NCBI GenBank assembly: GCA_022646745.1
Contig: CP060262.1
Span: forward strand, 1,751,149 to 1,815,148
Source of the DNA: Planctomycetales bacterium
GTDB taxonomy: Bacteria > 4484-113 > JAFGCY01
Direction: 5' to 3'
DNA: 64,000 nt
Shown here piece by piece: positions 16,252-59,494 of this stretch. Positions within the stretch are counted from its first letter, which is position 1, and each line of letters starts with the position of its first letter. A program made the position numbers and the translations under genes. The notes below the pieces were generated by a model that did not search any database, was not told the origin of the DNA, and saw only the letters and a program-made list of their open reading frames with translations.

Positions 16252-16992
16252 TTACAGCCTGGCCTCCCGTTCCTCCCTGTCACGCAGCCGCACATGTTCG
16301 CGCAGCACACCCGTTCCGAGCGTGATCTCCAGCAGGTTGGCAAAGCCCCATTGCCAGAGTGGCGTGGAGAGGATGAGCATGCCCAGCGGTGTGAAGCTGG
16401 CGATGCTCTGCGCATCGTGCAGCAGCAGGTTGAGCGCGGAAAGGATCATCAGCGGGGCAAGGGCGATCGTGCTGATTGCAGTCGCTGCACCTGGCCTGCG
16501 ACGCAGCTCCAGCAGGTAGGGTAGCTGCATCCCCGCGGCCCGGGCCCGGCCGAAGCCCGTTGCCAGGTTGAGGTGGATATGGTCGAGCCGGGCAAGGTAT
16601 CCGCTAGCGTAGTCCTCCACCGGTGGGTAGTTGTCGTCGCTGAGCAGCCGCAGCAGCAGGTCAGAACCGGCAATGCGTCGGCGCAGCTCCACGAGTAGCA
16701 TCCCCAGCCGCAGCAGCTGGAACAGGCCGAAGCAGAATGAGAGGATGAAGCCCGCCATCAGCAGGCGGAAGGGTGGTGTCTGGCTCACGCTGCCAGCCAG
16801 CGGGTAGTCAGCCGCAAGTGAGTACACCACGCGCCAGCCGCAGATAAGGTAGAGCACTACGGGGATGATCACGAGGAACAGCCAGGCGGCAAGCATTGTC
16901 ATTTCCGGTCCCAGCACGCGGCCGGCCGGCAGCACGCGCTCTCCCTGCGGCGGGGTGAACAGGATGCGCTCGAAACTGTGCCGCTCAGGCAT
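16252..16992 (-). CDS. 4-TM membrane protein, member 1 of a tandem paralog triplet (operon-distal)
   Basis: Start MPERHSFERILF… (ATG 16990-16992) overlaps the upstream gene stop by 8 nt. Topology is TM-TM, ~70-aa loop, TM-TM. C-terminus LREHVRLRD. Confidence 0.6.
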   Translation of the reverse strand: MPERHSFERILFTPPQGERVLPAGRVLGPEMTMLAAWLFLVIIPVVLYLICGWRVVYSLAADYPLAGSVSQTPPFRLLMAGFILSFCFGLFQLLRLGMLLVELRRRIAGSDLLLRLLSDDNYPPVEDYASGYLARLDHIHLNLATGFGRARAAGMQLPYLLELRRRPGAATAISTIALAPLMILSALNLLLHDAQSIASFTPLGMLILSTPLWQWGFANLLEITLGTGVLREHVRLRDREEREARL

Positions 16993-17800
16993 CGGTTGTC
17001 TGTCCTGTGTCAGACGGCTGGTCGATGTGCAGTAGGCCGTTGTCAAGCTCGCGCAGGTGCTCACGCAGCAGGGATTGCTGTACAAGCTGGTACATCACCG
17101 GCAGGGCCAGCCAGGTGATGATTACGGCCAGCACAACCTGCGTGACAGCAATGATGAATGTCTCGTTACCGCTGCCGTTGGCCGGCGCATTGGACCGCAG
17201 ATGGCTCAGTGGAACCAGGACTGGAACTGAGAGGCACAACCAGATCAGCAGCAGGTTCACGATCAGGGGAGGCCAGGGGGATTTCCTCAGGCCAATGCAG
17301 TAATCAAGCTGGCGGAAAGCCTCGATGAAGTGGTTCATCATTGTCTCTTTGCGCAATGCCAGCAGTTCGAAGCTGCGCAGCCAGCCCGCCAGCGGGCCAT
17401 CGTGGTACTCCACCCGCCAGCCATGCATCAGCCGGACCGCGATGTCGGACTGCTTCAGCCGGCTGCGCACCCTGTCCAGATGCGCCCGGGCGCGGCTGGT
17501 GAGGAACAGTGTTGCCAGCACCGGGGCCAGTACCGCAAGCACAAGAGCTGCGATGGTGAGGCCGTCCAGCTGCGGGTTGCCCTGGCTCGAGCCCAGCGTT
17601 GCCATCATCATGTCCACTATCAGGGAGATTGCAACAAACAGCAGGCTGATCATTGGCGCAAGCGTCAGGCCCATTGCCATCACCATGTTGATGAAGGCAT
17701 CCGCAGAATCCATCCGGCTCAGGCCGAAGCTCCTGCGGTCCATCTCGCCGAACACCTGCTGCTCCAGGCTGGCCCTGGGAGTGTCGGACACATCAGCCAT
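16985..17800 (-). CDS. 4-TM membrane protein, member 2 of the triplet
   Basis: 271 aa with the same topology. Loop motif KQSDIAVRLMHGW. C-terminus LLREHLRELD. Start overlaps the upstream stop by 8 nt. Confidence 0.65.
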   Translation of the reverse strand: MADVSDTPRASLEQQVFGEMDRRSFGLSRMDSADAFINMVMAMGLTLAPMISLLFVAISLIVDMMMATLGSSQGNPQLDGLTIAALVLAVLAPVLATLFLTSRARAHLDRVRSRLKQSDIAVRLMHGWRVEYHDGPLAGWLRSFELLALRKETMMNHFIEAFRQLDYCIGLRKSPWPPLIVNLLLIWLCLSVPVLVPLSHLRSNAPANGSGNETFIIAVTQVVLAVIITWLALPVMYQLVQQSLLREHLRELDNGLLHIDQPSDTGQTTDA

Positions 17801-18542
17801 GCAACACCTCCACTGCCGCTGGCCGTTGGCTCACGCTGGATGCCTGCTTGTCAAGGTCGCGCAGGTGCTCGCGCAGCAGCAATGCTTCACAGCGCTGCGC
17901 AAGAAAGGCATGCAGGCAGACATGCGTTGCCAGCAGCAGGCATGCTTCAATGGCTGCATAATTCAGGAAACTGTAGAAGTTGACCGGGGCATTGAGCACA
18001 ATGGCAACCAGCAGGGCTGCAAGCATGGGCAGCATCAGGATTGAAGGCAGCCAGCGCTGTTTTTCTCGGCCCTGCATGAAGGACAGCTGCTGGAATACCA
18101 GCCGCAGCTGCAGCGCCAGATCCCTGCCGGAATCAGTTTGCATTCCCTGCTCAATCTCCCTCAGCAATGCCAGGAACGGTGCATCCGGGCTGTCGGGTTG
18201 CCAGCCGGTCATGACCCTCGCCACCAGGTCAGAACGTCTCAGCATGCGCCTGGCGACGGAGATCCTGCGTGCCAGCAGCAGCAGGTTCAGCAGGCTGAGC
18301 AGTACGGCACTGAGCGCGAGCGACCAGCCAATGGTCTCAATGTATTCGTAATCAAAGGCATGGCGCACACCGGGATTGATAGCCTTGATTGGAGCGAGCG
18401 TGTACTGTAACCATAGGAGCGGCGGCAGCAGCGAAGGCACGAGGATGGCCAGCGCAGGCCACAGGGGATAGAGGTAAGTGCTGCGTGGTTCGCGACTGGC
18501 GTGCTCGCCAAACACCCGGTTCTCAAAGCTGGCCGTCTGCAT
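17793..18542 (-). CDS. 4-TM membrane protein, member 3 of the triplet (operon-proximal)
   Basis: Start chosen at MQTASFENRVFGE (RBS AGAGGGGA). A TATAAT box sits ~35 nt upstream on the minus strand. Loop motif RRSDLVARVMTGW. C-terminus LLREHLRDLD. The track ORF extends to 18689 through the repeat element. Confidence 0.55.
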   Translation of the reverse strand: MQTASFENRVFGEHASREPRSTYLYPLWPALAILVPSLLPPLLWLQYTLAPIKAINPGVRHAFDYEYIETIGWSLALSAVLLSLLNLLLLARRISVARRMLRRSDLVARVMTGWQPDSPDAPFLALLREIEQGMQTDSGRDLALQLRLVFQQLSFMQGREKQRWLPSILMLPMLAALLVAIVLNAPVNFYSFLNYAAIEACLLLATHVCLHAFLAQRCEALLLREHLRDLDKQASSVSQRPAAVEVLHG

Positions 18543-18616
18543 CGTCCCCTCTGTATCAAGCATGTCCATTCCCATGGGGATTATACGCCTGCGGGCATGG
18601 CTGCGCCAGCCTTGAC

Positions 18617-18767
18617 AGCAATGAGCAATGAAGAGTGAGCAATGAGTAGGAAGCAATGAGTAGGGATCAATGAAGAATGATCCTATCAATGTTTAGCAGG
18701 ACTCGATGCAGGTTCAGTCTCATTGCTCACTCTTCAGTGCTCATTGCTCCCCACTCATTGCTCCCCC
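18617..18767. repeat. Palindromic GAGCAATGAG-repeat element, copy a
   Basis: Arm CAATGAGCAATGAAGAGTGAGCAATGAG (18619-18647) is an almost perfect inverted repeat of CTCATTGCTCACTCTTCAGTGCTCATTGC (18719-18747). Additional (A)GCAATGAG direct repeats flank it. Located in the divergent promoter region between triplet gene 3 and the lipoprotein gene at 18828. Confidence 0.55.
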
Positions 18768-18827
18768 GCTTGACCCGCAAGCCGCATCCGCGGATAATTG
18801 ACTGGTAGTCCATCCAAGGGGAATAGC

Positions 18828-19679
18828 ATGGGAACGCAGAAGGGTATCGGTTTCGCAGGCGTGCTCGCCATCAGCCTGGCCTCACTGGTCTTCGGGGCCT
18901 GCGGCGGCGGAGGGGGCAACATCACCGGCTACGTGGTGCCGGACAACCCCTATTACTACGGTGGCAACAACGGCCCCTACTACTCAGGTAACAGCGACTA
19001 CTACTACCAGAACGGCTACTACTACGACCAGTATGGCTACTATGACCAGTTCGGCTACTACGACGGTTATGGCAACCAGCTGTACAACTCGAATGACCCG
19101 GCCTACGTGAACATCGTCAACCGCAACGGACGTGGCAACGACCCCTTCATGCAGAACTATGCCAACATCAACGACCGCACGGTCTCGCAGTTCGTCAACT
19201 CAACCTACTCCGAGATGCTGGCGGACTTCGGCGGCAGCCTGCAGGACCTGCTGGTGCGCGTGGATGGCAACTCAGTTGACATCCCGCCCGGGGAGTACAC
19301 GCTGGCAAGCCGCAATGCGGTGCTCAGTGAGGACGGCGGCCTGGACAGCGCGATCACGCTCAACTCCAGCTATGACGGAGTCAGCCTCGTGACCTACACG
19401 CTCGAGGAGTTCTCCGGCTACGAGCAGCTGGCCAGCTTCGCCATCAACGGCACGGGCAGCTTCGGCAGTGGCGACCGCAACGGGGTGTACTTCGGCATCC
19501 GCCAGTACGGCGACCGTGACACCCGCTGGTACGGCCCCTACCGCAACGGGATGGAGTGGAAGGTGCGCCCGCTGCGCTGGGATGAGCGCTACCAGTCGCG
19601 CCACTGCTTCGTGACCGTGGCTGTGTTCGGTGGAGACAGCGTGACCGTGAACCACATGCGCGCTGAGGTCGTTTACTGA
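18828..19679 (+). CDS. Lipoprotein with Tyr/Gly-rich low-complexity segment and a C-terminal W-Y-G-P-Y domain
   Basis: MGTQKGIGFAGVLAISLASLVFGAC lipobox. YYYGGNNGPYYSGNSDYYYQNGYYYDQYGYYDQFGYYDGYGN low-complexity segment. C-terminal TRWYGPYRNGMEW…HCFVTVAVFGG resembles the domain in the 21312/22287 lipoproteins and the giant protein. Confidence 0.65.
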   Translation: MGTQKGIGFAGVLAISLASLVFGACGGGGGNITGYVVPDNPYYYGGNNGPYYSGNSDYYYQNGYYYDQYGYYDQFGYYDGYGNQLYNSNDPAYVNIVNRNGRGNDPFMQNYANINDRTVSQFVNSTYSEMLADFGGSLQDLLVRVDGNSVDIPPGEYTLASRNAVLSEDGGLDSAITLNSSYDGVSLVTYTLEEFSGYEQLASFAINGTGSFGSGDRNGVYFGIRQYGDRDTRWYGPYRNGMEWKVRPLRWDERYQSRHCFVTVAVFGGDSVTVNHMRAEVVY

Positions 19680-19723: not shown

Positions 19724-20221
19724 ATGGAATCTCCACATTCCGGCATGCCTGCATTGCGCAGCCCGGGCTATAATCGCCCAGTGGCGAAAAGCTCAGTCTG
19801 GTTATGCATTGTATGCTTTGCACTGCTGCTGGCAGGTGCCTGCGGCAGTTCATCCACATATTCCTACCGCCTGCCGGCCGGCGTTGACAACAACCTGCGC
19901 ATCGTGCGCGCCGGTGACCCGAACTCGGTGCTGGCCGACACGCAGGACAAGGGGCGGATCACGATGCGGGTCGGCGAGACGCTGACGGTCTCGGCGATCT
20001 ACCGCTTCCGTTCTGCGATCTTCACCGGCACTGACGAAAAGGATGAATTCGTCACCGCGGACAGCAGCTGGCACTGGCTGGAGGCCGTGAATGACACACT
20101 CAGCTTTGACAACGGGGTGGTCACGGCACTCAAGCCAGGGGTGGACACGCTCAAGGCGGAGTACCGCGACAACGACATCTTCGAGGACTTCGACGCCAAG
20201 CTGGAAATCACCGTTGAATAG
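19724..20221 (+). CDS. Small lipoprotein, paralog 1 of a tandem pair (Ig-like/BIG-type fold suspected)
   Basis: LLLAGACGSS lipobox. Aligns along its length with the next gene (…LRIVRAGDPNSVLADTQDKGRITMRVGETLTVSAIYRFRSAI…). Confidence 0.65.
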   Translation: MESPHSGMPALRSPGYNRPVAKSSVWLCIVCFALLLAGACGSSSTYSYRLPAGVDNNLRIVRAGDPNSVLADTQDKGRITMRVGETLTVSAIYRFRSAIFTGTDEKDEFVTADSSWHWLEAVNDTLSFDNGVVTALKPGVDTLKAEYRDNDIFEDFDAKLEITVE

Positions 20222-20278
20222 GGGCACGGTACCGGGATGGGCAGACGGATCAGGAAACCACAGTTACAGGAGCTGGAA

Positions 20279-20713
20279 ATGACAATCAACAGGATGGCGG
20301 GGATCTTCCTCGCAATGGTGGCGATGCTGGCGCTGGCCGCCTGCGGCGGTGGCGGCAGCGAGTACATGCTGCCCACCGGCCAGGACTACAGCCTGCGCCT
20401 CGTGAAGGGCGGCGACCCGAATGACGTGCTGGCCTCCACCGAGCGCAAGGGCCACATCACGATGAATGTCGGCGAGACGCTGAATGTCACGACGATTTAC
20501 CGCTTCCGCTCGGCGATCGGCGACAAGGAGAAGGATGAGTTCGTCACGGCGACCTCGGCCTATGTCTGGCTGGAGGACGTGAATGACAAGCTGAGCTACA
20601 GCAACGGCAAGATCACCGCGGTCAAGGCCGGGCTGGACACCCTGCTCGTTAACTACGTTGACAACAATGCCAATGAGACCGTGTCCTGCCGGCTGGAGAT
20701 CACGGTCAACTGA
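20279..20713 (+). CDS. Small lipoprotein, paralog 2 of the tandem pair
   Basis: RBS AGGAG before MTINRMAGIFLAMVAMLALAAC. ~45% identical to the previous gene. Confidence 0.65.
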   Translation: MTINRMAGIFLAMVAMLALAACGGGGSEYMLPTGQDYSLRLVKGGDPNDVLASTERKGHITMNVGETLNVTTIYRFRSAIGDKEKDEFVTATSAYVWLEDVNDKLSYSNGKITAVKAGLDTLLVNYVDNNANETVSCRLEITVN

Positions 20714-20890: not shown

Positions 20891-20988
20891 TTAACTTTCA
20901 CTTAATCAAACTCCTGTTAGGGTTCCGCCCCCCTGCGGTAACACATCTGGTTTGTGAGAACCCCACCAAATTCCAAAGGAGGCAGACC

Positions 20989-21177
20989 ATGCGTTCAATG
21001 ATCTATGCAGTGGCGGCAGTGCTGCTGGTACTTGCAATGGCAGTGGTTCACATGCTGTCCTCTGCGGATGCCGCGGGCGGCAGCCGGGAGGGGCAGCGCA
21101 TCGGCATGGCCGTTGCAGGTGACCACACTGACGATGCTTATTGCCAGGTTTCTGACTGGCTGAGTGAACTGGACTGA
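20989..21177 (+). CDS. Small protein (62 aa) with N-terminal hydrophobic segment
   Basis: Consensus RBS AAAGGAGGCAGACC before the ATG. MRSMIYAVAAVLLVLAMAVVHMLSSADAAGG is signal- or TM-like. Confidence 0.45.
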   Translation: MRSMIYAVAAVLLVLAMAVVHMLSSADAAGGSREGQRIGMAVAGDHTDDAYCQVSDWLSELD

Positions 21178-21311
21178 TGCAGGTGTTGACTGCCTGATCG
21201 GTGGGGCCGGGAAACCGGCCCCTTTCCGTTTCTGTTTAGCGATTGCGCTGGGCGGGTAACGATAACGGTTCATCTGTGGAACCCCAAAATCCAAATCAGA
21301 GGCCCACAGAA

Positions 21312-22115
21312 ATGTATGGAAAGTCTTATACCGGGTTTGCCGGTATCATCGCAGGAAGCATCATGATCCTCGCAGCCAGCTGCTCCGGTGGCAACGGCAT
21401 GGCAGAGGTCCCCTCCCCGCAGGACAGCGCGCCTGTCATCGGGGAAGCGCTCACCATGGAAGGTGCCCCCAGCCTGGAGAAGATCTCCAGCGGCTGGCAG
21501 CAGTGGGGCGATTTCGAGCTCGGCTGGCTGGACCTGCACCAGAGCGTGCATGACGGCAGCAATGAGCTGGACGAGACCCGCATCTTCGCCAAGAGCGAGG
21601 GAGTCTACAACTTCGAGGACGGCGGCAAGGACTACATCAACTTCCCGGCCGCCGGAGTCGGCATGCACTACGCCGTGTTCGGCCTGAAGGACATCCCGGT
21701 CGGCTCGATCATCCGCGGCATCCGTTTCACCACGGACTTCAACAGCTCCGAGAGTGATGACGCCGAGTACTACGTTGCCTACAGCAACTACGAGACCGGT
21801 GTGTTCCAGTGGTACGGCCCCTACGCCGAGGGCGACATCGAGCTCTACAACCTGTTCACGAACAACGTCAGTGTCGGCCAGAAGGCCTACTTCACCATCG
21901 CGGTCACGGGGAACAACTACTACTCCGACGTGACGGACGTGGAAGTCAGCATCGGCAAGCCGCTGAAGGTTGATCTGCCGCTGCTCTACGAGCGCCAGCC
22001 GATCCCCAACGACTGGGTTCTCAATGAGTATGGCAAGGTGGACTGGGACCTGCTGTGGAAGCGTCCCGAGTTCCAGGAGATCATGATCATCGTCCGTCCG
22101 ATCCTGATCTTCTGA
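21312..22115 (+). CDS. Lipoprotein, tandem duplicate 1 (W-Y-G-P-Y domain family)
   Basis: MYGKSYTGFAGIIAGSIMILAASCSGG lipobox. ~60% identical to the next gene, including the upstream leader (GGTTCATCTGTGGAACCCCAAAATCCAAATC…CCCACAGAAATG). Confidence 0.7.
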   Translation: MYGKSYTGFAGIIAGSIMILAASCSGGNGMAEVPSPQDSAPVIGEALTMEGAPSLEKISSGWQQWGDFELGWLDLHQSVHDGSNELDETRIFAKSEGVYNFEDGGKDYINFPAAGVGMHYAVFGLKDIPVGSIIRGIRFTTDFNSSESDDAEYYVAYSNYETGVFQWYGPYAEGDIELYNLFTNNVSVGQKAYFTIAVTGNNYYSDVTDVEVSIGKPLKVDLPLLYERQPIPNDWVLNEYGKVDWDLLWKRPEFQEIMIIVRPILIF

Positions 22116-22129
22116 GCAGCAACAAGCTG

Positions 22130-22166
22130 TCCTGAACAGCGGGCCTGGCATCTGCCGGGCCCGTTT
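22130..22166 (+). terminator. Rho-independent terminator (CGGGCCTGGCA-TCT-GCCGGGCCCG + TTTTTGTTTTTCT)
   Basis: GC stem plus a long T-tract after the 22115 stop. Confidence 0.55.
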
Positions 22167-22286
22167 TTGTTTTTCTGCACGATCCTGTGCGCTTTCACTG
22201 CATTTGCTGTTTAGGTTTGGGAGGGGCCGGGTAACAAGAATGGTTCATCTGTGGAACCCCCAAATCCAAATCTAGGACCCACAGAA

Positions 22287-23129
22287 ATGTACGGAAAGTT
22301 CACTAACAGCATTGCAGGAATCATCATCAGCGGCGCCGCCATCATGGCAGCCAGCTGCTCCGGCGGAGCCGGGATGGATACAGCCAACCCGGGTAACACC
22401 GAAGTCGACCAGGCCGCCATCATTGAGCAGGCCATCACCACCGACGAGATGCCTTCCCTTGAGAAGCTCTCCAGCGGCTGGGAGCAGTGGACCGGCAGCG
22501 ACATCCTGATCGACTGGTACACCGTCTGGCTCAACAAGCACCAGAGCGTCGGCTACGGCGTGAACGACCTTGATGAGACAAAGCTGATCACCAAGAGTGA
22601 GGGCGTCTACAACTTCGAGGACGACGGCAAGGATTACCTCAACTTCCCGGCCACCGGCGGCGGCCTGAACTACGCCGTGTTCGGCGTCAAGGACGTTCCG
22701 CAGGGCGCGATCATGAAGGGCATCCGCTTCACCACGGACTTCAACTCCAGTGAGAGCCCGAACGCTGAGTACTACGTCTGCTACAGCAACTACGAAAGCG
22801 GTGTCTACCAGTGGTACGGCCCCTTCGCAGAGGGCGAGTACGAGGTCTACAACTTCTACACAAACAACATCAACGAGTACCAGCGTGGCTACTTCACCAT
22901 CGCCATCACCGGCAACAACTACTACAGCGATGTGACTGACGTGGAAGTGATCATCGGCGACCCGATCGACTTCAAGATCCCGGACCTCGTCGAGCACCAG
23001 CCGATCCCGAACTGGTGGCTGATGGACGACCTGGGCTTCGTGGACTGGGGCAAGCTGTTCGAGCTGCCCGCCGTCCAGCAGCTGAAGATCGCCCCGCAGT
23101 TCCAGTTCAGGACTGAGCTGGCCCGCTAG
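22287..23129 (+). CDS. Lipoprotein, tandem duplicate 2 (W-Y-G-P-Y domain family)
   Basis: MYGKFTNSIAGIIISGAAIMAASCSGG lipobox. Conserved blocks SEGVYNFED(D/G)GKDY(I/L)NFPA, IRFTTDFNSSES, QWYGP(Y/F)AEG, TGNNYYSDVTDVEV. Confidence 0.7.
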   Translation: MYGKFTNSIAGIIISGAAIMAASCSGGAGMDTANPGNTEVDQAAIIEQAITTDEMPSLEKLSSGWEQWTGSDILIDWYTVWLNKHQSVGYGVNDLDETKLITKSEGVYNFEDDGKDYLNFPATGGGLNYAVFGVKDVPQGAIMKGIRFTTDFNSSESPNAEYYVCYSNYESGVYQWYGPFAEGEYEVYNFYTNNINEYQRGYFTIAITGNNYYSDVTDVEVIIGDPIDFKIPDLVEHQPIPNWWLMDDLGFVDWGKLFELPAVQQLKIAPQFQFRTELAR

Positions 23130-23146
23130 GCAGACAGTCAGCAACA

Positions 23147-23180
23147 AGGAAACAGTGAGCCCCGCCACGGCGGGGCTCCT
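23147..23180 (+). terminator. Rho-independent terminator (GAGCCCCGCC-ACG-GCGGGGCTC + CTGCATTTTCT)
   Basis: Perfect 10-bp stem after the 23129 stop. Confidence 0.55.
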
Positions 23181-23245
23181 GCATTTTCTGTGGAGAAAGT
23201 ATCGCCATACGGGCAGCCCCGGAATCCCATAGTAGAATTCTGCCC

Positions 23246-23764
23246 GTGAGTGATATGCAGTTGCCCGATGGACTTGAAGTGATCGTGCTGCTTGGCAGCA
23301 TCAGCGACCGCGCGGTGGCGGAGGAGATGCTGCCCGTGTTCAGCGATTTCGGCGTCACCGCCCATGTGGCCGTGTGCAGCGCGCACCGCGACCATGAACG
23401 CCTCGCCCGGCTGATCCCCGAGGCTGAGTCGAAGGGCTGCGTGAGCGTGATTGCAGTGGCGGGCAAGAGCGCACACCTGCCGGGTGTCTGCGCCGCCCTG
23501 ACCACCATGCCGGTGATCGGCGTGCCCGCAGTCAACAGCGGGATCTGGCAGGATTCGCTGTACTCCATCGTGAACATGCCCCCGGGCATCCCGGTGGCCT
23601 GCGTCGGCATGGATGCGGGGCGCAACGCCGCCCTGCTGGCCGTGCAGCACGTTGCCATCGGCCGCAGTGAACTGCGTGGTAAGCTCAAGGACTTCAGGGA
23701 CAAGATGCGTGAAAGCAACCGGCGTGACAGTGCCAAACTGCAGCAGGAGCTGTCAGGAAAGTAG
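23246..23764 (+). CDS. purE: N5-carboxyaminoimidazole ribonucleotide mutase (AIR carboxylase catalytic subunit)
   Basis: VLLGSISD P-loop-like motif, …AHR…, AVAGKSAHLPGV and the overall 170-aa PurE layout. Confidence 0.9.
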   Translation: MSDMQLPDGLEVIVLLGSISDRAVAEEMLPVFSDFGVTAHVAVCSAHRDHERLARLIPEAESKGCVSVIAVAGKSAHLPGVCAALTTMPVIGVPAVNSGIWQDSLYSIVNMPPGIPVACVGMDAGRNAALLAVQHVAIGRSELRGKLKDFRDKMRESNRRDSAKLQQELSGK

Positions 23765-23858
23765 GCGCCACGCACTTCGCGTTCTGTTCCGCAATAAAAA
23801 ATAAAACTGTGCCGTGCGCGGCGGTGGGTGCCGTGCCCGGCTGCATCCGGAGCAATGG

Positions 23859-25703
23859 ATGATCGATCGCTACACGCGGCCGCCAATGGGCCGCCTGTTC
23901 ACGGCGAAGCATCGCTTTGACACCTGGCTGAAGGTTGAGCTGGCTGTCTGCGAGGCCTGGGCGGAGCGCGGGGAAATCCCGCAGGATGCCTGGAAGCGCA
24001 TCAGGAAGAATGCCAACTACAAGCTCAAGCGCATCAACGAGATTGAGGCGGCCGTGCACCATGACGTGATCGCCTTCAACACGGCGGTGGCGGACTACAT
24101 CGGCGAGGACAGCGCCTACTTCCACAAGGGGATGACCTCCAATGACGTGGTGGACACCGCGCAGTGCCTGATCCTCAAGGAGGCCGGGCAGCTGATCGAG
24201 GAGGGCCTGATCCGCCTGCGCAAGGCGCTCGGCGCCCGTGCGCTGGAGTACCGCCACACCCCGGTGATGGGCCGCACACACGGCGTGCATGCCGAGCCGA
24301 CCACCTTCGGGCTGAAGCTCCTGGTCTGGTATGACGAGCTCAACCGCCACGAGGAGCGGCTCGCGCTGGCGATTGACGGCCTGGCCGTCGGCAAGCTGTC
24401 CGGCGCCGTTGGCAACTTCGCGCACATCCCGCCGGACCTCGAGGAGCAGATCCTGCGAAAGCTCGGCCTGCAGAGTGCGCCGGTCTCCAACCAGGTGGTG
24501 CAGCGCGACCGGCATGCGCACTTCGTGATGGTGCTGGCCGGGCTGGCCTCCACGATGGAGAAGATCGCCGTCAACCTGCGCAGCTACCAGCGCACGGAGA
24601 TCGGCGAGGTGCAGGAACCCTTCGCCAAGGGCCAGAAGGGCTCCTCCGCGATGCCGCACAAGAAGAACCCGATCCTGCTCGAGCGCATCACCGGGCTGTC
24701 CCGTGTGATCCGCGGCTATGCCGTGACCGCGCTTGAGAACGTCGCGCTGTGGGACGAGCGTGACATTTCACACTCCGGCGCCGAGCGCGTGATCCTGCCG
24801 GACGCCTGCATCCTCGTTGACTACATGATGGACAAGCTGTCAACGGTGATCGGCGGGCTGGTCGTGCGCCCGGAGCAGATGAACCGCAACATCTACCTGA
24901 CGAAGGGCCTGATCTTCAGCCAGCGTGTGCTGCTGGCCCTGACCGAGGCCGGCGTCAGCCGCGAGGATGCCTACAGCATGGTGCAGCGCAATGCGATGCG
25001 CTGCTGGGAGGACCGCACCCCGCTGCTGGATGCTCTGCTCAATGACCGGGACGTGCGCAGCCACCTGGACACGGCGCAGATCTCCAGCCTGTTCACCATC
25101 GACCCGTTCCTGGAGCATGTCGACCGGCTGTTCGAGCGCGTCGGCCTCAGTGACGGCAAGAAGCACAGCTCAGACGACCCGAAGCCGGTGCAGGCCCCGC
25201 GCCGCGGCCGGGGACGCGGCCGGCGCAAGGATGACCGCATCATGCGCAGCGAACAGGGCAACATTGACAGCATTGCAGTGGACACCGGCGCGATCCAGAA
25301 CATCAGTGAGCGCGCCTCCGACTACTACGAGTCCGCCAGCGTGGTACTGAGCCGTACGAAGTCGGATGCACCGAAGGGTGATGACACGCTTGGCGAGGCG
25401 GAGCACCAGAAGAAGAAGGTGGCCAGTGAAGGTACCGGCAAGCCTGCCAGCGCCTCCCGCAGCCGCTCGCGCAGCAAGCCGCGCACTGACAAGGATAAGG
25501 ATAAAGTTGCCACTGAAGGCAAGGATAATGAGAAGCCTTCCGGGGTAGGAAGCAGCAAGCCCGCCCCTCCCGCCGACGCTTTGGCGTCCGCCGATGAGGA
25601 GAAGGCGGCGAAGCCACGCCGGCGCAGGCGTCGCAGCCCGTCGCGCAAGCCCGCAGAGGGTGGCACTGGTAATGGATCTGATACTAAGGAAAAGGGAGAA
25701 TAG
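23859..25703 (+). CDS. purB: Adenylosuccinate lyase with ~190-aa basic/Ser-rich low-complexity C-terminal extension
   Basis: N-terminus MIDRYTRPPMGRLF (compare B. subtilis-type PurB). Fumarate-lyase signature GSSAMPHKKNP. The catalytic core ends ~aa 440. The ORF continues uninterrupted through a K/R/S/D-rich tail (RRGRGRGRRKDD…RSRSRSKPRTDKDKDK…KPRRRRRRSPSRK) to 25703, 2 nt before purC. Confidence 0.85.
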   Translation: MIDRYTRPPMGRLFTAKHRFDTWLKVELAVCEAWAERGEIPQDAWKRIRKNANYKLKRINEIEAAVHHDVIAFNTAVADYIGEDSAYFHKGMTSNDVVDTAQCLILKEAGQLIEEGLIRLRKALGARALEYRHTPVMGRTHGVHAEPTTFGLKLLVWYDELNRHEERLALAIDGLAVGKLSGAVGNFAHIPPDLEEQILRKLGLQSAPVSNQVVQRDRHAHFVMVLAGLASTMEKIAVNLRSYQRTEIGEVQEPFAKGQKGSSAMPHKKNPILLERITGLSRVIRGYAVTALENVALWDERDISHSGAERVILPDACILVDYMMDKLSTVIGGLVVRPEQMNRNIYLTKGLIFSQRVLLALTEAGVSREDAYSMVQRNAMRCWEDRTPLLDALLNDRDVRSHLDTAQISSLFTIDPFLEHVDRLFERVGLSDGKKHSSDDPKPVQAPRRGRGRGRRKDDRIMRSEQGNIDSIAVDTGAIQNISERASDYYESASVVLSRTKSDAPKGDDTLGEAEHQKKKVASEGTGKPASASRSRSRSKPRTDKDKDKVATEGKDNEKPSGVGSSKPAPPADALASADEEKAAKPRRRRRRSPSRKPAEGGTGNGSDTKEKGE

Positions 25704-26452: not shown

Positions 26453-26911
26453 CTAGTCGGCCCAGACGATGTAGTCGGAATTGACGGCGGGACGGCCGCA
26501 GGCCTTCAGCGATGTGTTCACATACCCGCGGTGGAATGCCGAGTGCAGCACCATGTGCATCAGGATGTCATGCATGCTGCGCTCGCAGTTCTCCCCTTCA
26601 TGGCTTCGGTATCGCAGGCGCAGGCGCAGGTAGGTGTCGTCCATGTTTGAAAGGATGATCTGCAGGCGCAGCTGCGTTGCCAGGTCCATGTCGCGAATCT
26701 GGCGGATCAGCTTGTCCGGCCACATGTCCACGTGGTCCGAGTTGCCCTTGTCAATCCGCTCCAGCCAGCATGCCCGCCCGGCGATGATGTGCGCAGCCTG
26801 CCGCCGCGCCTCTTTCGCGTGTTCGCAGTCACCGGCACGTTCCACGGCGCCGATCACCTTTTCCGTCATTTCGAATTCGTAGGCGAACAGGCGCCTCAGT
26901 TGCGTGACCAT
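26453..26911 (-). CDS. DinB/YfiT-like (DinB_2 superfamily) metal-dependent protein
   Basis: Internal start MVTQLRRLFAYEFEMTEKV (ATG 26909-26911). C-terminal HSAFHRGY motif typical of the DinB four-helix-bundle family. The track ORF up to 27277 is a spurious 5' extension antisense to the next gene. Confidence 0.65.
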   Translation of the reverse strand: MVTQLRRLFAYEFEMTEKVIGAVERAGDCEHAKEARRQAAHIIAGRACWLERIDKGNSDHVDMWPDKLIRQIRDMDLATQLRLQIILSNMDDTYLRLRLRYRSHEGENCERSMHDILMHMVLHSAFHRGYVNTSLKACGRPAVNSDYIVWAD

Positions 26912-27043
26912 AGGAATAATGTAACAGAGCCGGGCATTGCTGGACAGCCCGCACAAAGGCCCGCAAGGTTTGTTTCCACCGCATTGACGGGGTACAATCA
27001 CAGCGGGAATCACCGGCTGAAACAGAATTCCCGGGAGTATGTT

Positions 27044-53881: not shown

Positions 53882-56800
53882 CTACTCGATGCAGATCGCG
53901 AGACCCATTCCTCCAGTGGTGGTTGTTCCTGCAACATCATTTCCGATCATCATCGCGTTTGGTTTGCGGGAGATGGTCGGCCCGCTAGTGACAGGTAGCC
54001 AGCTGCTGCCGTTGACATCCAGCCCACGCTGCAGGCTTGTGGTGAAGGGGCATTCATATATCCTGGGCAGGCCACTGCGATCCAGCAGTTGCGGGTAGTT
54101 GCCATAGGTGTTGGCTGTTGCGCCCAGTAGGTACTCGGTGCCGGACCAGCTGCTGCCATCCGCATTGTCAGACCGGATGTAGTAGAGCTGGTTCCAATTG
54201 AACAGCGCCATTGCCGGATAGCCGTCGATGATGGCCAGGTCGGGCCTGGAACGGAACTGCGCTACTGCAATCGGGGCGTTCCATGAACTGCCATCCGCAC
54301 TGCTGGCACGCAGGTACCAGATATAGCCCACTGACTCATCTGCATATGTGATGGCCGGATTGCCGTTCACGATGATCATGTCAGTGTCATGACCCGTGTC
54401 AGCCGTGCTGTCCAGCACCTGCACGCTGCCCCAGCTCGTGCCCTGTGCATCAAGCGCCCGGATGAAACACAGTCTGTTGGCAAGGTCATCCTGGAAGGAG
54501 AGGGCCGGATAACCGTCAACGATTGCCCCGCTGGAAAACACCACGCCGAGCCCGGTTGGGATGTCCACCGGTGCACTGGTCCAGCTGCTGCCGGAGGCAT
54601 CGTCAGCCCGGATGATCCTGAGCGTGTCAACCACATTGCGGCTGTAGATCACGGCCGGGTGTCCGTCCGCCTCAATCAGCTGCAGGCTGAGAATCGTGCC
54701 GCTGCCCACGATCTGGACCGGTGTGCTCCAGGCCCGGCCATCCGCCTGGCTGGCAATCGCAAAGCGGATTCCGGAACCGGATGGAGCAGTCGAGTAAGCC
54801 ACGGCGGGCATGCCGCCGATCAGCTCCAGGTCCTGGTAGTCCCCGACATTCACGCTGCTGTCAATTGGCACCAGCAGCGGGTTGCAGTCGATCGTCAGGC
54901 TGTCCGTGTGCACATGACCATCGTTGTCAGTCACCTGCATCACCACTGTGTAGTCACCGATGCCGAAGTCATGGGAGACGGTCGGGTCCGTGCCGCTTGC
55001 CTCGTCATAGCTTCCATCGCCGTCCCAGTCCCAGGAGTAGTCGACAATGCTGCCATCCACATCGAATGACTGGCTGGCATCGAAGTTCACCGTCAGGATG
55101 CATTCACCTGCTGTCACGTCGCTGGTGAGGATGGCGTAGGGCCAGTATTCACCATCCCCTCCCAGGGCAAGTAACTGGCCATCCACGGGTAGATAGGTAG
55201 TCCCGTCAGTGCCGATCACGGGCTGGTAGGTTGCGGGGGCATCGTCCTGCAGGGCATAAACCCAGTCTGACAGCCCGGTGGAACTGGCAATCCCACGAGC
55301 GTCGTCATTGGTGCCGCAGATTATTGAATCGGAGGCATCCACTGTCGGATTGTGAAAGATGCTGAACGAATTCAGGAAGTTCCAGTTCTGGTTGCCGGCC
55401 GGGTCATATGAACGAATGCTGCTGTTCTTGTAGGCAATGATGTTGCCGGCATTGTCTACCCCGAAATGGCCGACTCCCCCGAAGAACAGATCCTGCCAGT
55501 CAAGAGTTCCGTCAGGCAGGTAGCTGTACACATGTGTGAATCCCACGATGATGTTCCCTGTGGGGGTGACCAATGGTGCCACATCGGGAGAGGAGGGCAC
55601 CTTCCACTGGAAATTGCCGTCAGGATCCACACAGTAGACAAAGTCATTAGTCGGGAAGATGATGTTGCCGGACAGGTCAAAGCAGCTGGCCTGGCTGACA
55701 TCGTAGTTCTTTCCTGTGCTGTATTCCCAGAGGAAATTGCCGTCTGGATCATGGCACACAAGACGGGCGGGGGATTCGGTGGAATAGTAGATATTGCCGT
55801 TCGGTCCGATGCTGGCCGTGGTGTACATCTCCGCAGTGTGGCCCGATTTCCAAAGGAAGTTGCCATTGAAGTCGATCTTCTCCAGCTGGGCATCGCTCGC
55901 ACTCGACGTGAGGATGCCGTCCACCGCCAGACACGGGCCGATTACCGGCCCCCAGGTCGGGTAGGTCCACAGCTCCTGGCTGTCCTGGCTGATCGCGCGC
56001 AGAAGCGCTCCATCATTCAGCAGCACAACATCATCGGGTGTGATTACCAGGTTACGTGGAGAGTTGCTGAAGTGCAGGTACCATCGCCTGTCCGGATCCG
56101 GGTCTGCAATGTTCATTGACTGACCGTTGCCCCTGGAATTTCCATTGGCCGTCCACCACACATCATCGCCGGGCGGGCTGGGGGCGGTGCAGATCTCCAT
56201 CGTGCGCGTACTGAAGACACCTGAGTCGTCATAGGCATAACAGACAACCACATGCCGCAGGGTACCGGACAGGGTCGTCCCCGTTGTCGGCGAACTGCCC
56301 GTCTCATCCATCACACCGTCGCCATCGAAGTCCCAGCGGTATTCCACGATGGAGCCGTCGGGGTCGTAGGAAGCCGAGGCGTCGAAGCTGACCGACAGGG
56401 GGCTGGCCCCGCTGTAGGCACTGGCGGTGCACAGCACCACCGGCAACTGGTTTGCAGCGCTGACGGTCACCTGCAGGCTGTCGTTGTCCTGCAGCCCGTC
56501 GTTGTCAGTCACGCGCAGGGTGACGGTGAATTCACCGGCGTCATTGAAGGTCCAGTCAACGGTATCGCCGGCATCGGTCAGGTCCCAGACACCGTCCGTG
56601 TTGAAGTCGTAGTCGTAGCTGACGATGCTGCCGTCCGGGTCGCTGGAGCCTGTGGCGTCGAAGTTCACCTGCAGCGGGGCTTCGCCGGAATTCAAATCAG
56701 AAGCCAGCACGGCAATCGGTGGCGTACCTTCAATGGGCGGGTTGCCGATGCAGCTCAGCATGCCGTTTGGCATCACGATCAGCACCCTGCCGTCAGCCCC

Positions 56801-59494
56801 GATCACCGGGCCGTGGAAGGTGCCAGTGCCCATGTCCTGGTCAAAGAACAGATTGCCATTGGCATCGAATGCCATCACCCAGCCGCTTGAGTCATTGAAG
56901 TAAGTGTTGTCCTGTGAGTCGATTGCCACACCACGGATGCCGTAGATATGTGGCTTGACATGCCAGTCAACCGAGCCATCGGAGGGATCAACCTGGTAGA
57001 TGTCACCGGAGCTGGTTCCGATGCGCAGCTTGCCATCGCGGGACTCAGCGCTGATCACGTGGTTGTCCGCCAGCGGAACTGACCACTGCTCCTGCAGCTG
57101 GCTGTCATAGGCGACGAGATTCGCATCGGTGTCGCCGACCATCAGCAAACCATCCCGGTTCAGCATCGCGATGCCCCGTGCACCGAGCATATCCTCAGTC
57201 AGTGCTGCATCAATTGAGGTCCAGCTGTACCAGCCGATGCCACTGCCGTAGACGACGCCCCGTGCCCCGTCAATCATCGGCATTGTCAGGCCGCCCTGCG
57301 TCGGCAGGTCCAGCTGCCAGAAGGTATTCCCGCTGCCGTCGATCAGTGCGACCTTGTCCGTGCCGACCAGCAGCGCGCGGTCCAGGGCATGGCTGTAGGT
57401 GGCACTGAGCACTGGGTCCGTCAGTCCGCTGGTCTGCCAGACCTGCGCTCCGCTGGCATCCAGGCAGACCGCGCCGCCGGCCGTGGATGGCACCAGCAGG
57501 TGGTCATCGTCAATCACGCTGATCTCGGGGGCACCGCTGATCGGCTTGTCCCAGTTCAGCCCGCCGTCCTTGTCCAGGCTGAACATCACGTTGTCAGTGG
57601 TGGCGAAGTAGATGTTGCCGGCGCTGTCAACCACGGGAATATGGTGGATCGTGCCCGGTGCCGGTGCATCGTAGGTCCACAGCACTTCCGCTCCGGCAGT
57701 GAATCCGGGCGAGGGACTGCGCCGCGTGTTCCAGGCGGTTGCCCCCGGCACGGGCCAGCTCGAGTGGAAGATGTGCACCGCCGCACTTGTGCTGTCCTGG
57801 AATCCGTTGTTGTCAGTCACCCGCAGCCTGACGCGGTAGCTGCCGGGGCTGTTGAACTGGTGCGTCAGCGTATCCTCGCTGCCCTGCTGGTCATAGCTGC
57901 CGTCACCGTCAAAGTCCCATTCATACAGTTCGATTGTGCCGTCAGGGTCCATGCTGGCACTGCCGTCAAGCTGGACCAGGGCGCCGGCAAAGCCGTCGCT
58001 CTCGGGATACGCAAGGACCGCAACCGGTGGTTCTCCGGATGCCGCAACACTGATCTGCAGCTCATCGGTGTCAACTGCCCCGTTGTCATCAATCACCCGG
58101 AAACGGGCGGTGAACTCCCCGGGCTGCATGTAGACATGCACATACGGCGTGATCGGGTCGGGGCCGGAGATGTCGTAGAAGCCGTCACCGTCATAGTCAA
58201 GCGCATAATCCACGATGTAGCCGTCAGGGTCCGAAGCCGTGCTGCTGAAGCCGACGGACAGCGGCGCATCACCGGAAAGCACATCTGCCGCGGCTGCGAC
58301 CTGTGGCGGCTGGTTGTCAGTTACCAGCACGCAGCAGGCTGCCAGCCGAACCGCCTGCTGGTCCGCCGTACGCGAGAGGATGCCGGGACGCATGAAGCCT
58401 GCTGGCTGAGCCACGGTCGTGAAGCTGCCCAGCACCTGTCCGGTCTGCTCGAAGCTGCCGTCACCGTTGCCATCGAGGTCATAGCTCTCCGCTCCGACCA
58501 CATCAACATCCAGTAGCGTATCGGTCTTTGGCTCATTTGAGTCCGGCAGCAGCAGTGGAATGGAGGCGGTACCGATGCCGGGCTCAAACTGCAGCACATC
58601 ACTAAGCAGGCCCTGATTGCCAGCGAAGTCGACGGCTGTCAGGGCAGCCCAGCCACCGCCGGGCATTTCCAGCTGGCAGAGCGGGCCGGCAAACAGGAAC
58701 TCGTGCAGGGTCACACCCGGGTCCCCCGTCCCGCTGAACTGGCTGGACGATGTATAGAGCCGGTAACCGGCGATCGAGGGATCCGCAAGCCTTGTCCAGC
58801 CTGCCAGGATGCCGCCGGCAGCCGGCTGCACGAAGAAGTCCTCCACCGCATCGGGCGAAGTGAAGTCCTCAGTATCAAGCATGTTGACGGAACAGTTGAC
58901 CACATCCAGCCGAGCGCCCTGGCTGGCAACCACGGCGACGAATGTGTTGCCAAGCGAACTCGTGTAGTCTGTGGCATTGTCGAACAGCGGAATGCGCAGC
59001 TGGCTGTCGTGGATCGGGCCGAACCAGTCCCAGCGGCCTGTGGTGTAGTTCGCCAGCCCGACCGAATAGCTGCTGGCCTTGCCTTTCGAGTCCTCCAGCG
59101 GATTGATGTCAAGGCTCACTACCGCCGGGCTGCCACCATGGTTGTCAATCCGGTAGATGCACGATGCACTGGAATCTGCGGATGCGCCGCCGGTAAGCCT
59201 GGCTGCAATGCCCATCCGTATCACATCACCACTGCGCCGGAACCAGTCAAATCCAAGTACGACTTCAGACTGGTCATTGATTGCCAACGGACTGCGCTGG
59301 TTGAACTGTGATTGCGGATCCAGTTCCCAGGCATGCGGCCTGTCCTGCGGAATCACGGTAAACGGGTCAGGGCTTGCGGCTAATGTTCCAGCCGGCTCAA
59401 GGCCGGATTGCTGGCCGAACTGTCCGCCCCCACAGGATATGCAAATCATTGCAAGCAAGACGGTTGAGCTGAGCAATGAAAGTAGAGATTTCAT
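53882..59494 (-). CDS. Giant (1870 aa) cell-surface lipoprotein: W-G-P domain + multiple PKD domains + PQQ-like beta-propeller + C-terminal BNR/Asp-box propeller
   Basis: Start MKSLLSLLSSTVLLAMICISCGG (ATG 59492-59494). N-terminal domain …NYTTGRWDWFGPIHD… homologous to the 21312/22287 lipoproteins. At least 5 PKD motifs (YALDYDGDGFYD, YEWDFDGDGSYD, YDYDFNTDGVWD, YRWDFDGDGVMD, YSWDWDGDGSYD). PQQ-like repeats (…GNIYFATTDNVMFSLDKDGGLNW…). Six C-terminal SxDxGxxW Asp-box repeats (SADGSSW, NADGSSW, DASGSSW, DAQGTSW, QADGRAW, DVNGSSW). Confidence 0.8.
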   Translation of the reverse strand: MKSLLSLLSSTVLLAMICISCGGGQFGQQSGLEPAGTLAASPDPFTVIPQDRPHAWELDPQSQFNQRSPLAINDQSEVVLGFDWFRRSGDVIRMGIAARLTGGASADSSASCIYRIDNHGGSPAVVSLDINPLEDSKGKASSYSVGLANYTTGRWDWFGPIHDSQLRIPLFDNATDYTSSLGNTFVAVVASQGARLDVVNCSVNMLDTEDFTSPDAVEDFFVQPAAGGILAGWTRLADPSIAGYRLYTSSSQFSGTGDPGVTLHEFLFAGPLCQLEMPGGGWAALTAVDFAGNQGLLSDVLQFEPGIGTASIPLLLPDSNEPKTDTLLDVDVVGAESYDLDGNGDGSFEQTGQVLGSFTTVAQPAGFMRPGILSRTADQQAVRLAACCVLVTDNQPPQVAAAADVLSGDAPLSVGFSSTASDPDGYIVDYALDYDGDGFYDISGPDPITPYVHVYMQPGEFTARFRVIDDNGAVDTDELQISVAASGEPPVAVLAYPESDGFAGALVQLDGSASMDPDGTIELYEWDFDGDGSYDQQGSEDTLTHQFNSPGSYRVRLRVTDNNGFQDSTSAAVHIFHSSWPVPGATAWNTRRSPSPGFTAGAEVLWTYDAPAPGTIHHIPVVDSAGNIYFATTDNVMFSLDKDGGLNWDKPISGAPEISVIDDDHLLVPSTAGGAVCLDASGAQVWQTSGLTDPVLSATYSHALDRALLVGTDKVALIDGSGNTFWQLDLPTQGGLTMPMIDGARGVVYGSGIGWYSWTSIDAALTEDMLGARGIAMLNRDGLLMVGDTDANLVAYDSQLQEQWSVPLADNHVISAESRDGKLRIGTSSGDIYQVDPSDGSVDWHVKPHIYGIRGVAIDSQDNTYFNDSSGWVMAFDANGNLFFDQDMGTGTFHGPVIGADGRVLIVMPNGMLSCIGNPPIEGTPPIAVLASDLNSGEAPLQVNFDATGSSDPDGSIVSYDYDFNTDGVWDLTDAGDTVDWTFNDAGEFTVTLRVTDNDGLQDNDSLQVTVSAANQLPVVLCTASAYSGASPLSVSFDASASYDPDGSIVEYRWDFDGDGVMDETGSSPTTGTTLSGTLRHVVVCYAYDDSGVFSTRTMEICTAPSPPGDDVWWTANGNSRGNGQSMNIADPDPDRRWYLHFSNSPRNLVITPDDVVLLNDGALLRAISQDSQELWTYPTWGPVIGPCLAVDGILTSSASDAQLEKIDFNGNFLWKSGHTAEMYTTASIGPNGNIYYSTESPARLVCHDPDGNFLWEYSTGKNYDVSQASCFDLSGNIIFPTNDFVYCVDPDGNFQWKVPSSPDVAPLVTPTGNIIVGFTHVYSYLPDGTLDWQDLFFGGVGHFGVDNAGNIIAYKNSSIRSYDPAGNQNWNFLNSFSIFHNPTVDASDSIICGTNDDARGIASSTGLSDWVYALQDDAPATYQPVIGTDGTTYLPVDGQLLALGGDGEYWPYAILTSDVTAGECILTVNFDASQSFDVDGSIVDYSWDWDGDGSYDEASGTDPTVSHDFGIGDYTVVMQVTDNDGHVHTDSLTIDCNPLLVPIDSSVNVGDYQDLELIGGMPAVAYSTAPSGSGIRFAIASQADGRAWSTPVQIVGSGTILSLQLIEADGHPAVIYSRNVVDTLRIIRADDASGSSWTSAPVDIPTGLGVVFSSGAIVDGYPALSFQDDLANRLCFIRALDAQGTSWGSVQVLDSTADTGHDTDMIIVNGNPAITYADESVGYIWYLRASSADGSSWNAPIAVAQFRSRPDLAIIDGYPAMALFNWNQLYYIRSDNADGSSWSGTEYLLGATANTYGNYPQLLDRSGLPRIYECPFTTSLQRGLDVNGSSWLPVTSGPTISRKPNAMMIGNDVAGTTTTGGMGLAICIE

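Follow-up and report, generated by a model that had tools for sequence, protein, structure and literature searches.

An old array of lipoprotein genes in the candidate phylum UBP7 and the alternative-sigma-type promoter that probably precedes each of its units

The stretch of DNA considered here, referred to throughout as the window, covers 64,000 nucleotides (nt) of contig CP060262.1 (positions 1,751,149 to 1,815,148, forward strand) from the Planctomycetales bacterium assembly GCA_022646745.1, and ahead of the purine gene purE it contains two neighbouring genes, termed W_a and W_b, that encode related lipoproteins. The explanation that best accounts for this pair, and which is favoured here with moderate confidence, is that the two genes belong to an old array of surface lipoproteins whose copy number varies between genomes and in which each unit has an alternative-sigma-type promoter of its own. 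As reconstructed, a unit begins with a sigma-B/SigF-like element (GTTTAG, 14 nt, GGGTA(A/T)), followed after exactly 7 nt by GGTT(T)C-loop-GAA(G)CC together with the box CCCCAAAT, then, in the UBP7 clade only, by GGTTCACAG, and finally by the coding sequence (CDS) and an intrinsic terminator. An alternative sigma factor would switch on the entire array, a small membrane protein included, and each mRNA would start with a hairpin at its extreme 5' end. The lipid-anchored products would display a predicted 11-strand jelly-roll beta-sandwich at the cell surface, where they may act as ligand-binding modules, probably for glycans, that have diversified through duplication. The module made up of the promoter and the 5' untranslated region (UTR) would be held uniform within each genome through gene conversion, or else because it co-evolves with a factor that acts in trans.

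The products of W_a and W_b are 58% identical across 269 amino acids (aa; BLASTP, E 1e-112), close to the figure of about 60% given in an initial annotation of the window. Both have the features of a substrate of signal peptidase II, namely a positively charged n-region, a hydrophobic h-region and a lipobox with a terminal Cys, as judged by eye from the sequence against a PROSITE PS51257-type pattern, [LIVMFWSTAG](2)-[LIVMFYSTAGCQ]-[AGS]-C. The relevant segments read MYGK..IMILAAS-C-SGG in W_a and MYGK..AIMAAS-C-SGG in W_b, with a hydrophobic stretch before AASC-SGG, and the lipobox Cys is kept in at least 90% of the 33-35 family sequences. Upstream of the two genes the DNA can be aligned from about -80 to the ATG, which confirms, as a module of ~75 nt, the conserved leader that had been described before each gene. 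Within this module the 19-mer GGTTCATCTGTGGAACCCC is found exactly ahead of both W_a and W_b and at no other site in the 64 kb with up to three mismatches (0 expected), and the block AAATCCAAATC...CCCACAGAAATG is likewise confined within the window to the same two sites at up to three mismatches (0 expected). A sliding comparison of the two copies places the duplicated unit between ~21233 and ~22060, beyond which identity is ~40%. In this comparison neither the C-terminal tails nor the two downstream terminators align to each other, and the terminators are therefore analogous rather than demonstrably homologous. The suggestion that the whole transcription unit was duplicated, terminator included, thus stands for the promoter, leader and CDS, and a terminator is present after each gene, the two terminators not being demonstrably homologous. 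Most copies in other genomes have a common terminator type, GGAAAC..AACCCCGCyrCGGCGGGGTT.

The pair forms part of a wider arrangement. A comparison of copy number among relatives, which the initial annotation had put forward as a check, gives an array that varies from 2 to 4 copies at the same site, with 2, 3 or 4 family copies next to purE at loci L001-L008 of related metagenome-assembled genomes (MAGs). For instance, HKST-UBA01, which is 98% identical to the window, likewise has two copies, and four copies are found in each of HKST-UBA03 and AC1.30; other MAGs are labelled 4484-113. The HKST MAGs originate from a study of saline activated sludge (PMC8495973). The order of genes is a Y/G-rich lipoprotein, one or two small Ig-like lipoproteins, an open reading frame (ORF) of 62 aa, 2-4 family copies and then purE-purB-purC. 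A second unit is present downstream of the first at L014, and P0018, a member that is only ~25% identical, lies two genes upstream of purE. At L012, which belongs to a distant lineage (1429-4850), the family gene P0016 comes right after the genes for a cohesin-like protein and for a Peptidase_M6/TIG protein of 937 aa and is not next to purE, and the linkage to purE is therefore not universal.

What kind of element, then, is the module that precedes each of these genes? Its upstream half fits a sigma-B/SigF-type promoter, an assignment made by consensus matching. The sigma-B-type consensus is GTTTAA-N12-15-GGG(A/T)A(A/T), with an optimal spacer of 14 nt and with the GGG and A5 of the -10 nearly invariant (PMC8346170, PMC9847131). 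A regular expression written for the module gives 33 matches, 32 of them at array units and the 33rd (window position 32583) a chance occurrence. Across the 32 array units the spacer is 14 nt in 25, 13 nt in six and 15 nt in one, the -10 is GGGTAA or GGGTAT in 29 and CGGTAA in three (the small-ORF units of the window, L001 and L006), and the distance from the -10 to the GGTT is exactly 7 nt in every case. This constant gap is no more than suggestive of a transcription start, which for a sigma-B/SigF-type promoter would lie 6-9 nt downstream of the -10. The -35 is GTTTAG, with GTTTTG, GTTTGA, GTTTAC and others as variants, and agrees with 3-5 of the 6 consensus positions (5/6 in W_a and W_b). 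For the pattern GTTT-N15-18-GGGWAW the window has four occurrences where 0.30 are expected, and W_a and W_b account for two of them.

The reach of the module is equally informative. Each of the 17 copies in the window and in L001-L004 has it upstream, even those that encode proteins of 25-30% identity, and it is also kept upstream of L008 and of the more distant members L009-L011, L012 and L014 from other metagenomes. A covariance model of the module, run across ~150 kb on both strands, gives matches only directly upstream of family genes or of the 62-aa ORF, the latter in the window being a weak match at 20937-21003. The adjacent gene for the Y/G-rich lipoprotein has a sigma-70-like promoter, TTGACC-N17-GATAAT at 18770-18798, according to a promoter scan, and the array would therefore be regulated differently from its neighbour. 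The sigma-B/SigF-type (group 3) promoters of Bacillus, Listeria, Staphylococcus, Streptomyces and Mycobacterium share with the array units a GTTT(A/T)N element, a spacer of 13-15 nt (mostly 14) and GGGTA(A/T) (PMC8346170, PMC9847131), and in both cases the element serves a set of separately transcribed genes. The resemblance has its limits, in that the host belongs to an uncultured phylum that is neither Firmicute nor Actinobacterial, and in that the fixed 7 nt to a GGTT(T)C hairpin and the CCCCAAAT box are foreign to the known consensus. Other points also tell against the assignment: the ten window ORFs scanned against Pfam include no gene for a sigma-B/SigF-like sigma factor, the hexamer at -10 finishes with A-C or A-T where A-T is canonical, and the -35 is variable (GTTTTG, GATTGA, GCATAG).

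Other readings of the same sequence were considered and set aside. An extracytoplasmic function (ECF)-type promoter with GGGTAAC as its -35, an RpoH-type promoter with CCCCAAAT as its -10, and sigma-54 or housekeeping sigma-70 promoters were all rejected by eye on account of hexamer mismatch or spacing (11 or 22 nt). The leader was likewise rejected as coding sequence or an upstream ORF, since its in-frame extensions are not conserved in frame across copies and an ATG, that of 'aATGGTT', is not kept (C in W_a, L1_b and L2_c; TTG in L1_d).

The 62-aa ORF deserves separate mention as the unit that opens the array in most genomes, being unrelated to the lipoprotein family and preceded by the same module. 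Orthologues are present in L001, L004, L005 and L006, and deleted remnants in L002, L003 and L004. In these short units (L002 2915-3110; L003 5745-5940; L004 4905-5100) the 62-aa ORF is missing, and a sigma-B-like promoter is left together with a hairpin (GGTTTGCGC..GCGC), ~30 nt from the end of the small ORF (..GGCTGACTCAGTGAACTGG..) and terminators. They were left behind by a deletion or else encode a small non-coding RNA that arose from the 62-aa gene. A separate observation concerns the family member P0014 (L004 3122-3856), where the annotated start is an ATG inside the promoter/leader (..GGGTAACAGGTATGGTTTCGAC..), which gives the database protein a spurious N-terminal extension of 16 aa; the true start is the downstream ATG (MYGLSARTISS..), given the conserved position of the module.

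The downstream half of the module would form the beginning of the transcript, and here two helices can be drawn. The first, H1, is the GGTT(T)C-loop-GAA(G)CC hairpin at the predicted +1, followed by CCCCAAAT; it is paired in 142/142 cells across 25 distinct sequences, with loops of four lengths (4-7 nt) and of differing sequence, and its substitutions are G-U-compatible on the plus strand only. The second, H2, belongs to the UBP7 clade, in which GGTTCACAG (CCCACAG in the window) abuts the ATG in place of the usual Shine-Dalgarno sequence and can pair with the loop and the 3' arm of H1, with 96% of positions paired. In copy 1 only 2 nt separate the end of this helix from the ATG. At the position taken by GGTTCACAG, a normal GGAGG is present ahead of the 62-aa ORF and of the distant members.

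Could the module then act chiefly as a cis-regulatory RNA whose promoter is to be sought further upstream? On that account H1 (GGTTyC/GRRRCC) would alternate with H2 (CTGTGAAGCC/GGTTCACAG), which would mask the translation-initiation region. Such a switch would suit two helices that are mutually exclusive and each 96-100% paired across copies, as well as the strand-specific G-U substitutions, the change in loop length from 4 to 7 nt and the restriction of Shine-Dalgarno sequences to the 62-aa ORF and the distant members. The controls lend it no support. The covariation is matched by 69/500 and 181/500 shuffled controls and is not significant, the folding-energy z-scores, from -1.2 to +0.3, are ordinary and show no thermodynamic excess, and a search of the whole window against Rfam 15 gives 0 matches at the gathering threshold. 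H1 is short and H2 is absent outside the UBP7 clade. Moreover, the distant lineages have lost both H2 and CCCCAAAT and yet keep GTTTAG-N14-GGGTAW-N7-GGTT; the promoter half outlasts the rest, and the most conserved part of the module therefore behaves like a promoter. An RNA element at the 5' end is plausible and stays unproven, since the covariation and energy controls are not passed and H2 and CCCCAAAT are lost in the distant lineages, and an RNA switch as the main identity of the module is regarded as unlikely, if still the strongest of the competing accounts. The RNA and promoter readings are not exclusive, as an RNA element could follow the promoter.

The proteins themselves represent a family with a narrow distribution. 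An exhaustive profile search of 1.84 billion proteins returns 27 cluster representatives at E<=1e-3, which are 153-296 aa long save for one fragment of 82 aa, the full-length ones carrying a lipobox, and ten homologues are found among 5.8 billion clustered proteins, all of them in unclassified MAGs. Judged from these searches, this is a lipoprotein family of ~210-300 aa restricted to the candidate phylum UBP7 and related uncultured lineages. No Pfam family is matched by any of 33 members at E<=0.1 save for one irrelevant hit, the family is unmatched in NCBIfam, and a sequence search of the PDB gives nothing below E 0.5, so that the earlier proposal of a lineage-specific surface domain holds as far as lineage restriction is concerned. 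The central W-Y-G-P block on which that proposal was built is real: its W and G are invariant in the 33-35 family sequences, conserved W/Y residues lie in the motif Q-W-Y-G-P, and the block recurs in the Y/G-rich lipoprotein and in a giant protein of the window (see below).

An AlphaFold model (m612470460c05) built on a 35-sequence alignment has a mean confidence (pLDDT) of 84, with the core above 90 (an earlier run with 10 close sequences reached only 50), and shows a short helix followed by 11 strands in a two-sheet jelly-roll beta-sandwich, the kind of fold that the initial annotation had guessed. Foldseek matches this model in the PDB to domain III of Cry toxins and to carbohydrate-binding modules (CBMs) of families 11, 16, 29, 61 and 15, with E-values from 5e-5 to 3e-3 and probabilities of 0.98-1.0, and matches in a viral structure library are to tail-fibre and CBM-like domains. 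The structural matches have TM-scores of 0.3-0.5 and identities of 10-15%, which count against a closer identification, and "CBM-like" denotes the fold class only. The modelled domain is thus placed in the CBM-like jelly-roll class but in no described family. The 11-strand two-sheet sandwich superposes on the beta-jelly-roll CBMs (CBM11, CBM16, CBM29, CBM61, CBM15, CBM6-like) and on domain III of the three-domain Cry toxins of Bacillus thuringiensis; unlike these, the family has no profile match to any Pfam CBM family and its domain is joined to a lipoprotein signal and not to an enzyme or toxin.

A further parallel is offered by the surface glycan-binding proteins (SGBPs) of the SusE/SusF type that are encoded in the polysaccharide utilisation loci of Bacteroidota, which are lipid-anchored, contain CBM-like beta-sandwich domains, and are paralogous and clustered. 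The array shares with them the lipid anchor, the CBM-like sandwich and the clustering of paralogues, but its locus has no SusC/SusD pair or glycoside hydrolase, there is no sequence relationship between the two groups, and the array genes are monocistronic with an alternative-sigma-type promoter. Taking sequence and model together, the products would be surface ligand-binding lipoproteins under alternative-sigma control, with a glycan as the probable ligand.

The domain is also found in other architectures. When the full set of 713 stop-to-stop ORFs in the window is screened with a hidden Markov model (HMM) built from 43 sequences of the family, the only matches are W_b, W_a, the Y/G-rich lipoprotein and the giant protein, a lipoprotein of 1870 aa. 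For the Y/G-rich lipoprotein the evidence is strong, with an HMM match of E 1.1e-22 and 76 bits over ORF residues 157-291 and an hhalign comparison with its orthologues that gives a probability of 99.6% and E 5.8e-25 over 169 columns, the family alignment used in this case having left out the Y/G sequences; the domain is thus common to the C-terminus of this protein, as had been claimed. The same claim for the N-terminus of the giant protein fares less well. Three methods agree at E-values of ~1e-7 (BLASTP E 8e-8; HMM E 7.5e-8 over residues 151-233; hhalign 92%, E 6e-7 over 72 columns), and the support is moderate, as only half of the domain is aligned. The remainder of the giant protein consists of five PKD domains and PQQ-like beta-propellers.

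The resemblance of the giant N-terminus might alternatively have arisen by convergence or by chance on a short W-x-G-P beta-hairpin motif. The library-wide profile search has no long protein among its 27 matches at E<=1e-3, the giant aligns over only ~72-83 residues (72-85 at 22-27% identity), and its N-terminus, when used as a query, retrieves no homologues from which a profile might be made. A chance match is nevertheless considered improbable in view of the agreement of the three methods, the alignment of strands on either side (YSVGLANY..., TFVAVVAS), whose order agrees with that in the family, and the fact that the giant is a lipoprotein of the same genome. A further apparent architecture, P0042 (231 aa, from an ENA contig of 1165 nt), combines an HlyD-like N-terminus with the exact final ~80 aa of the Y/G-rich lipoprotein of the window, and was set aside as a probable chimeric assembly.

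Within a genome the leaders of the array resemble one another more closely than their orthology would lead one to expect. The leaders of W_a and W_b are mutual best matches at 89%, and the best matches of their proteins lie in other genomes; the leaders of L4_c and L4_d are 100% identical against 58% for the proteins, and those of L4_a and L4_b are 82% identical against 26%. The codons of the signal peptide are homogenised within genomes as the leaders are. This uniformity would be accounted for if the 5' ends undergo gene conversion or if they co-evolve with a factor that acts in trans. On another reading the palindrome GGTTTC-N5-7-GAAACC would be a DNA operator, bound by a dimeric repressor or activator over the transcription start; the uniformity within genomes could then reflect co-evolution with that regulator, and an inverted repeat at a constant 7 nt from the -10-like hexamer in every copy is in keeping with such a site. 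However, the half-sites are separated by a variable distance (4, 5, 6 or 7 nt), the most frequent form, GGTTTC/GAAGCC, makes an imperfect palindrome as DNA and a perfect helix with a G-U pair as RNA, and no regulator gene was identified nearby. An operator is thought rather less probable than the RNA switch.

How old, then, is the W_a/W_b pair? The initial annotation regarded the duplication as recent, and this is the part of it that does not hold. Between the two coding sequences the synonymous divergence (dS) is 0.57 and the nonsynonymous divergence (dN) 0.34, and dN/dS is 0.59 for these paralogues against 0.13-0.29 for orthologous pairs. In a neighbour-joining tree and an identity matrix W_b groups with L1_a and L1_c of another genome, at 82% identity, and W_a is closest to L4_c (64%) and L1_b (58%), both also in other genomes. 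These closer relatives elsewhere, together with the dS, mean that the duplication is older than the separation of these genomes. The split between W_a and W_b is old and reflects ordinary paralogue biology rather than a recent event, and younger duplications do exist elsewhere, as with L1_a and L1_c (90%).

A recent tandem duplication, with leaders that are alike only for want of time to diverge, might be argued from the leader segment at 21280-21324, which is 87% identical against a CDS average of ~70%, and from the leaders being each other's closest match, but it is very improbable given the dS, the proteins at 58% identity, a tree that places each copy closer to a relative in another genome, and the retention of the module before copies of ~25% identity, before the unrelated 62-aa ORF and in distant lineages. 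Conservation of the module across units as divergent as these requires selection and/or gene conversion, not recency.

The Vlp/Vsp/Vsa lipoproteins of Mycoplasma and the Vsp/Vlp lipoproteins of Borrelia are also tandem paralogues in which the 5' non-coding region and signal peptide are far more conserved than the mature part. A phase- or antigen-variable system like the Mycoplasma vsp/vlp/vsa loci would account for a multigene lipoprotein set with 5' regions and signal peptides homogenised within genomes and for the raised dN/dS between paralogues, but it too is most improbable, since the array has neither an invertible element nor a recombinase gene, its promoters are free of inverted repeats at their flanks and of homopolymer or short tandem tracts, and its genes have no internal repeats or repetitive mature regions (the search for flanking inverted repeats, homopolymer tracts and tandem repeats covered 20900-23200), every copy has a complete promoter and terminator, and the copies are stable orthologues across genomes.

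Table 1 Positions in the window of the array units and of the other proteins with the domain.
Feature	Position	Strand	Detail	Basis or context
Sigma-B/SigF-type promoter-like element, copy 1	21234..21259	+	-35 GTTTAG (21234-21239), 14-nt spacer, -10 GGGTAA (21254-21259)	consensus match
Sigma-B/SigF-type promoter-like element, copy 2	22209..22234	+	GTTTAG (22209-22214), N14, GGGTAA (22229-22234)	consensus match
Predicted 5' UTR, copy 1	21267..21311	+	H1 GGTTC (21267-21271)/GAACC (21279-21283), then CCCCAAAAT; H2 CTGTGG (21274-21279)/CCACAG (21304-21309)	
Predicted 5' UTR, copy 2	22242..22286	+	H1 GGTTC (22242-22246)/GAACC (22254-22258); H2 CTGTGG (22249-22254)/CCACAG (22279-22284)	
Lipoprotein copy 1 (W_a)	21312..22115	+	267 aa	ORF from ATG 21312
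Lipoprotein copy 2 (W_b)	22287..23129	+	280 aa; predicted beta-sandwich at ~residues 85-225	ORF from ATG 22287
Intrinsic terminator, copy 1	22138-22165	+	12-bp stem, then T-run TTTTTGTTTTT	
Terminator-like hairpin, copy 2	23157-23178	+	9-bp stem, weak T-run	
Terminator-like hairpin between 62-aa ORF and copy 1	21203..21222	+		
Promoter/leader module of 62-aa ORF	20916..20962	+	GTTAGG-N14-CGGTAA-N7-GGTTT-GTGA-GAACC, then CC..AAAT and canonical AGGAGG Shine-Dalgarno	
62-aa single-pass membrane protein	20989..21177	+	conserved C-terminus (Q/E)V(S/T)DWLSELD	
Y/G-rich lipoprotein	18828..19679	+	C-terminal ~135 aa (~nt 19266-19670) a copy of the beta-sandwich domain	
1870-aa lipoprotein, N-terminal region matching C-terminal half of domain	58841..59089	-	..YSVGLANYTTGRWDWFGP..TFVAVVAS..	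gene 53882..59494

A number of other features of the window lie around the array. Upstream, between a minus-strand gene for a membrane protein (the ORF ending at 18689) and the gene for the Y/G-rich lipoprotein, 18617-18766 contains two opposed arrays of 7-nt repeats, AGCAATG four times (18617-18680) and CTCATTG four times (18719-18766), with arms that are up to 97% complementary over 30 nt and that may represent a repeated regulator-binding site or a large cruciform. The membrane-protein gene is one of three consecutive and slightly overlapping ORFs on the minus strand (16252-18689), which encode hydrophobic proteins of 271-298 aa with similar motifs at their C-termini, ..REHLRELD.., ..REHLRDLDK.. 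and ..REHVRLRDRE..; this triplet is also present in L001 (248, 257 and 304 aa), has no Pfam family on record and probably represents a third paralogous tandem set. A second tandem pair, 19724-20221 and 20237-20713, encodes small lipoproteins of ~144-165 aa that are 58% identical (E 5e-48), and as related genomes have a single copy at that position this duplication appears younger or lineage-specific.

Downstream of the array, at 23225-23250, a box CATAGTA(A/G)AAT precedes the GTG with which purE starts (23246) by 6-7 nt and is kept in the window and L001-L004; there is no Shine-Dalgarno sequence, and the arrangement suggests a leaderless purE mRNA. The adenylosuccinate lyase encoded by purB (23814-25703) is 629 aa long and has a C-terminal extension of ~180 aa rich in K, R, S, E and D (..RRGRGRGRRKDD.., ..SRSRSRSKPRTDKDKDK..), which is unusual for this enzyme, and its length is conserved in L002 and L003 (624 and 634 aa). 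Further along, three consecutive paralogous lipoproteins (26732-29026, 29135-31102 and 31339-32838) have a dockerin-like GDYDGNGEVG.SDITP followed by PKD-like repeats, with PKD matches on an orthologue, and they constitute another expanded family of surface proteins in the window.

What does the array mean for the organisms that carry it? A more ambitious proposal, put forward tentatively and thought unlikely, is that GTTTAG-N14-GGGTAA-N7-GGTT(T)C..GAA(G)CC-CCCCAAAT marks a dedicated alternative-sigma regulon of UBP7 and that the 5'-terminal hairpin is a new cis-regulatory RNA, which in the UBP7 clade would toggle with a helix against the initiation region to control the translation or stability of CBM-like lipoproteins. 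If this were true, the long-standing linkage to purE would have a functional reason. No general principle is altered by any of this, its ingredients being well known, from tandem lipoprotein paralogues and CBM-like sandwiches to sigma-B-type promoters. The array does provide a clean case of a cis-element that is uniform within genomes while the coding regions diverge, and it brings with it an undescribed family of predicted beta-sandwich domains in three protein architectures. The promoter signature could be used to define a regulon genome-wide, and in this way the array would offer a first handle on the gene regulation and cell-surface biology of a phylum known only from metagenomes.

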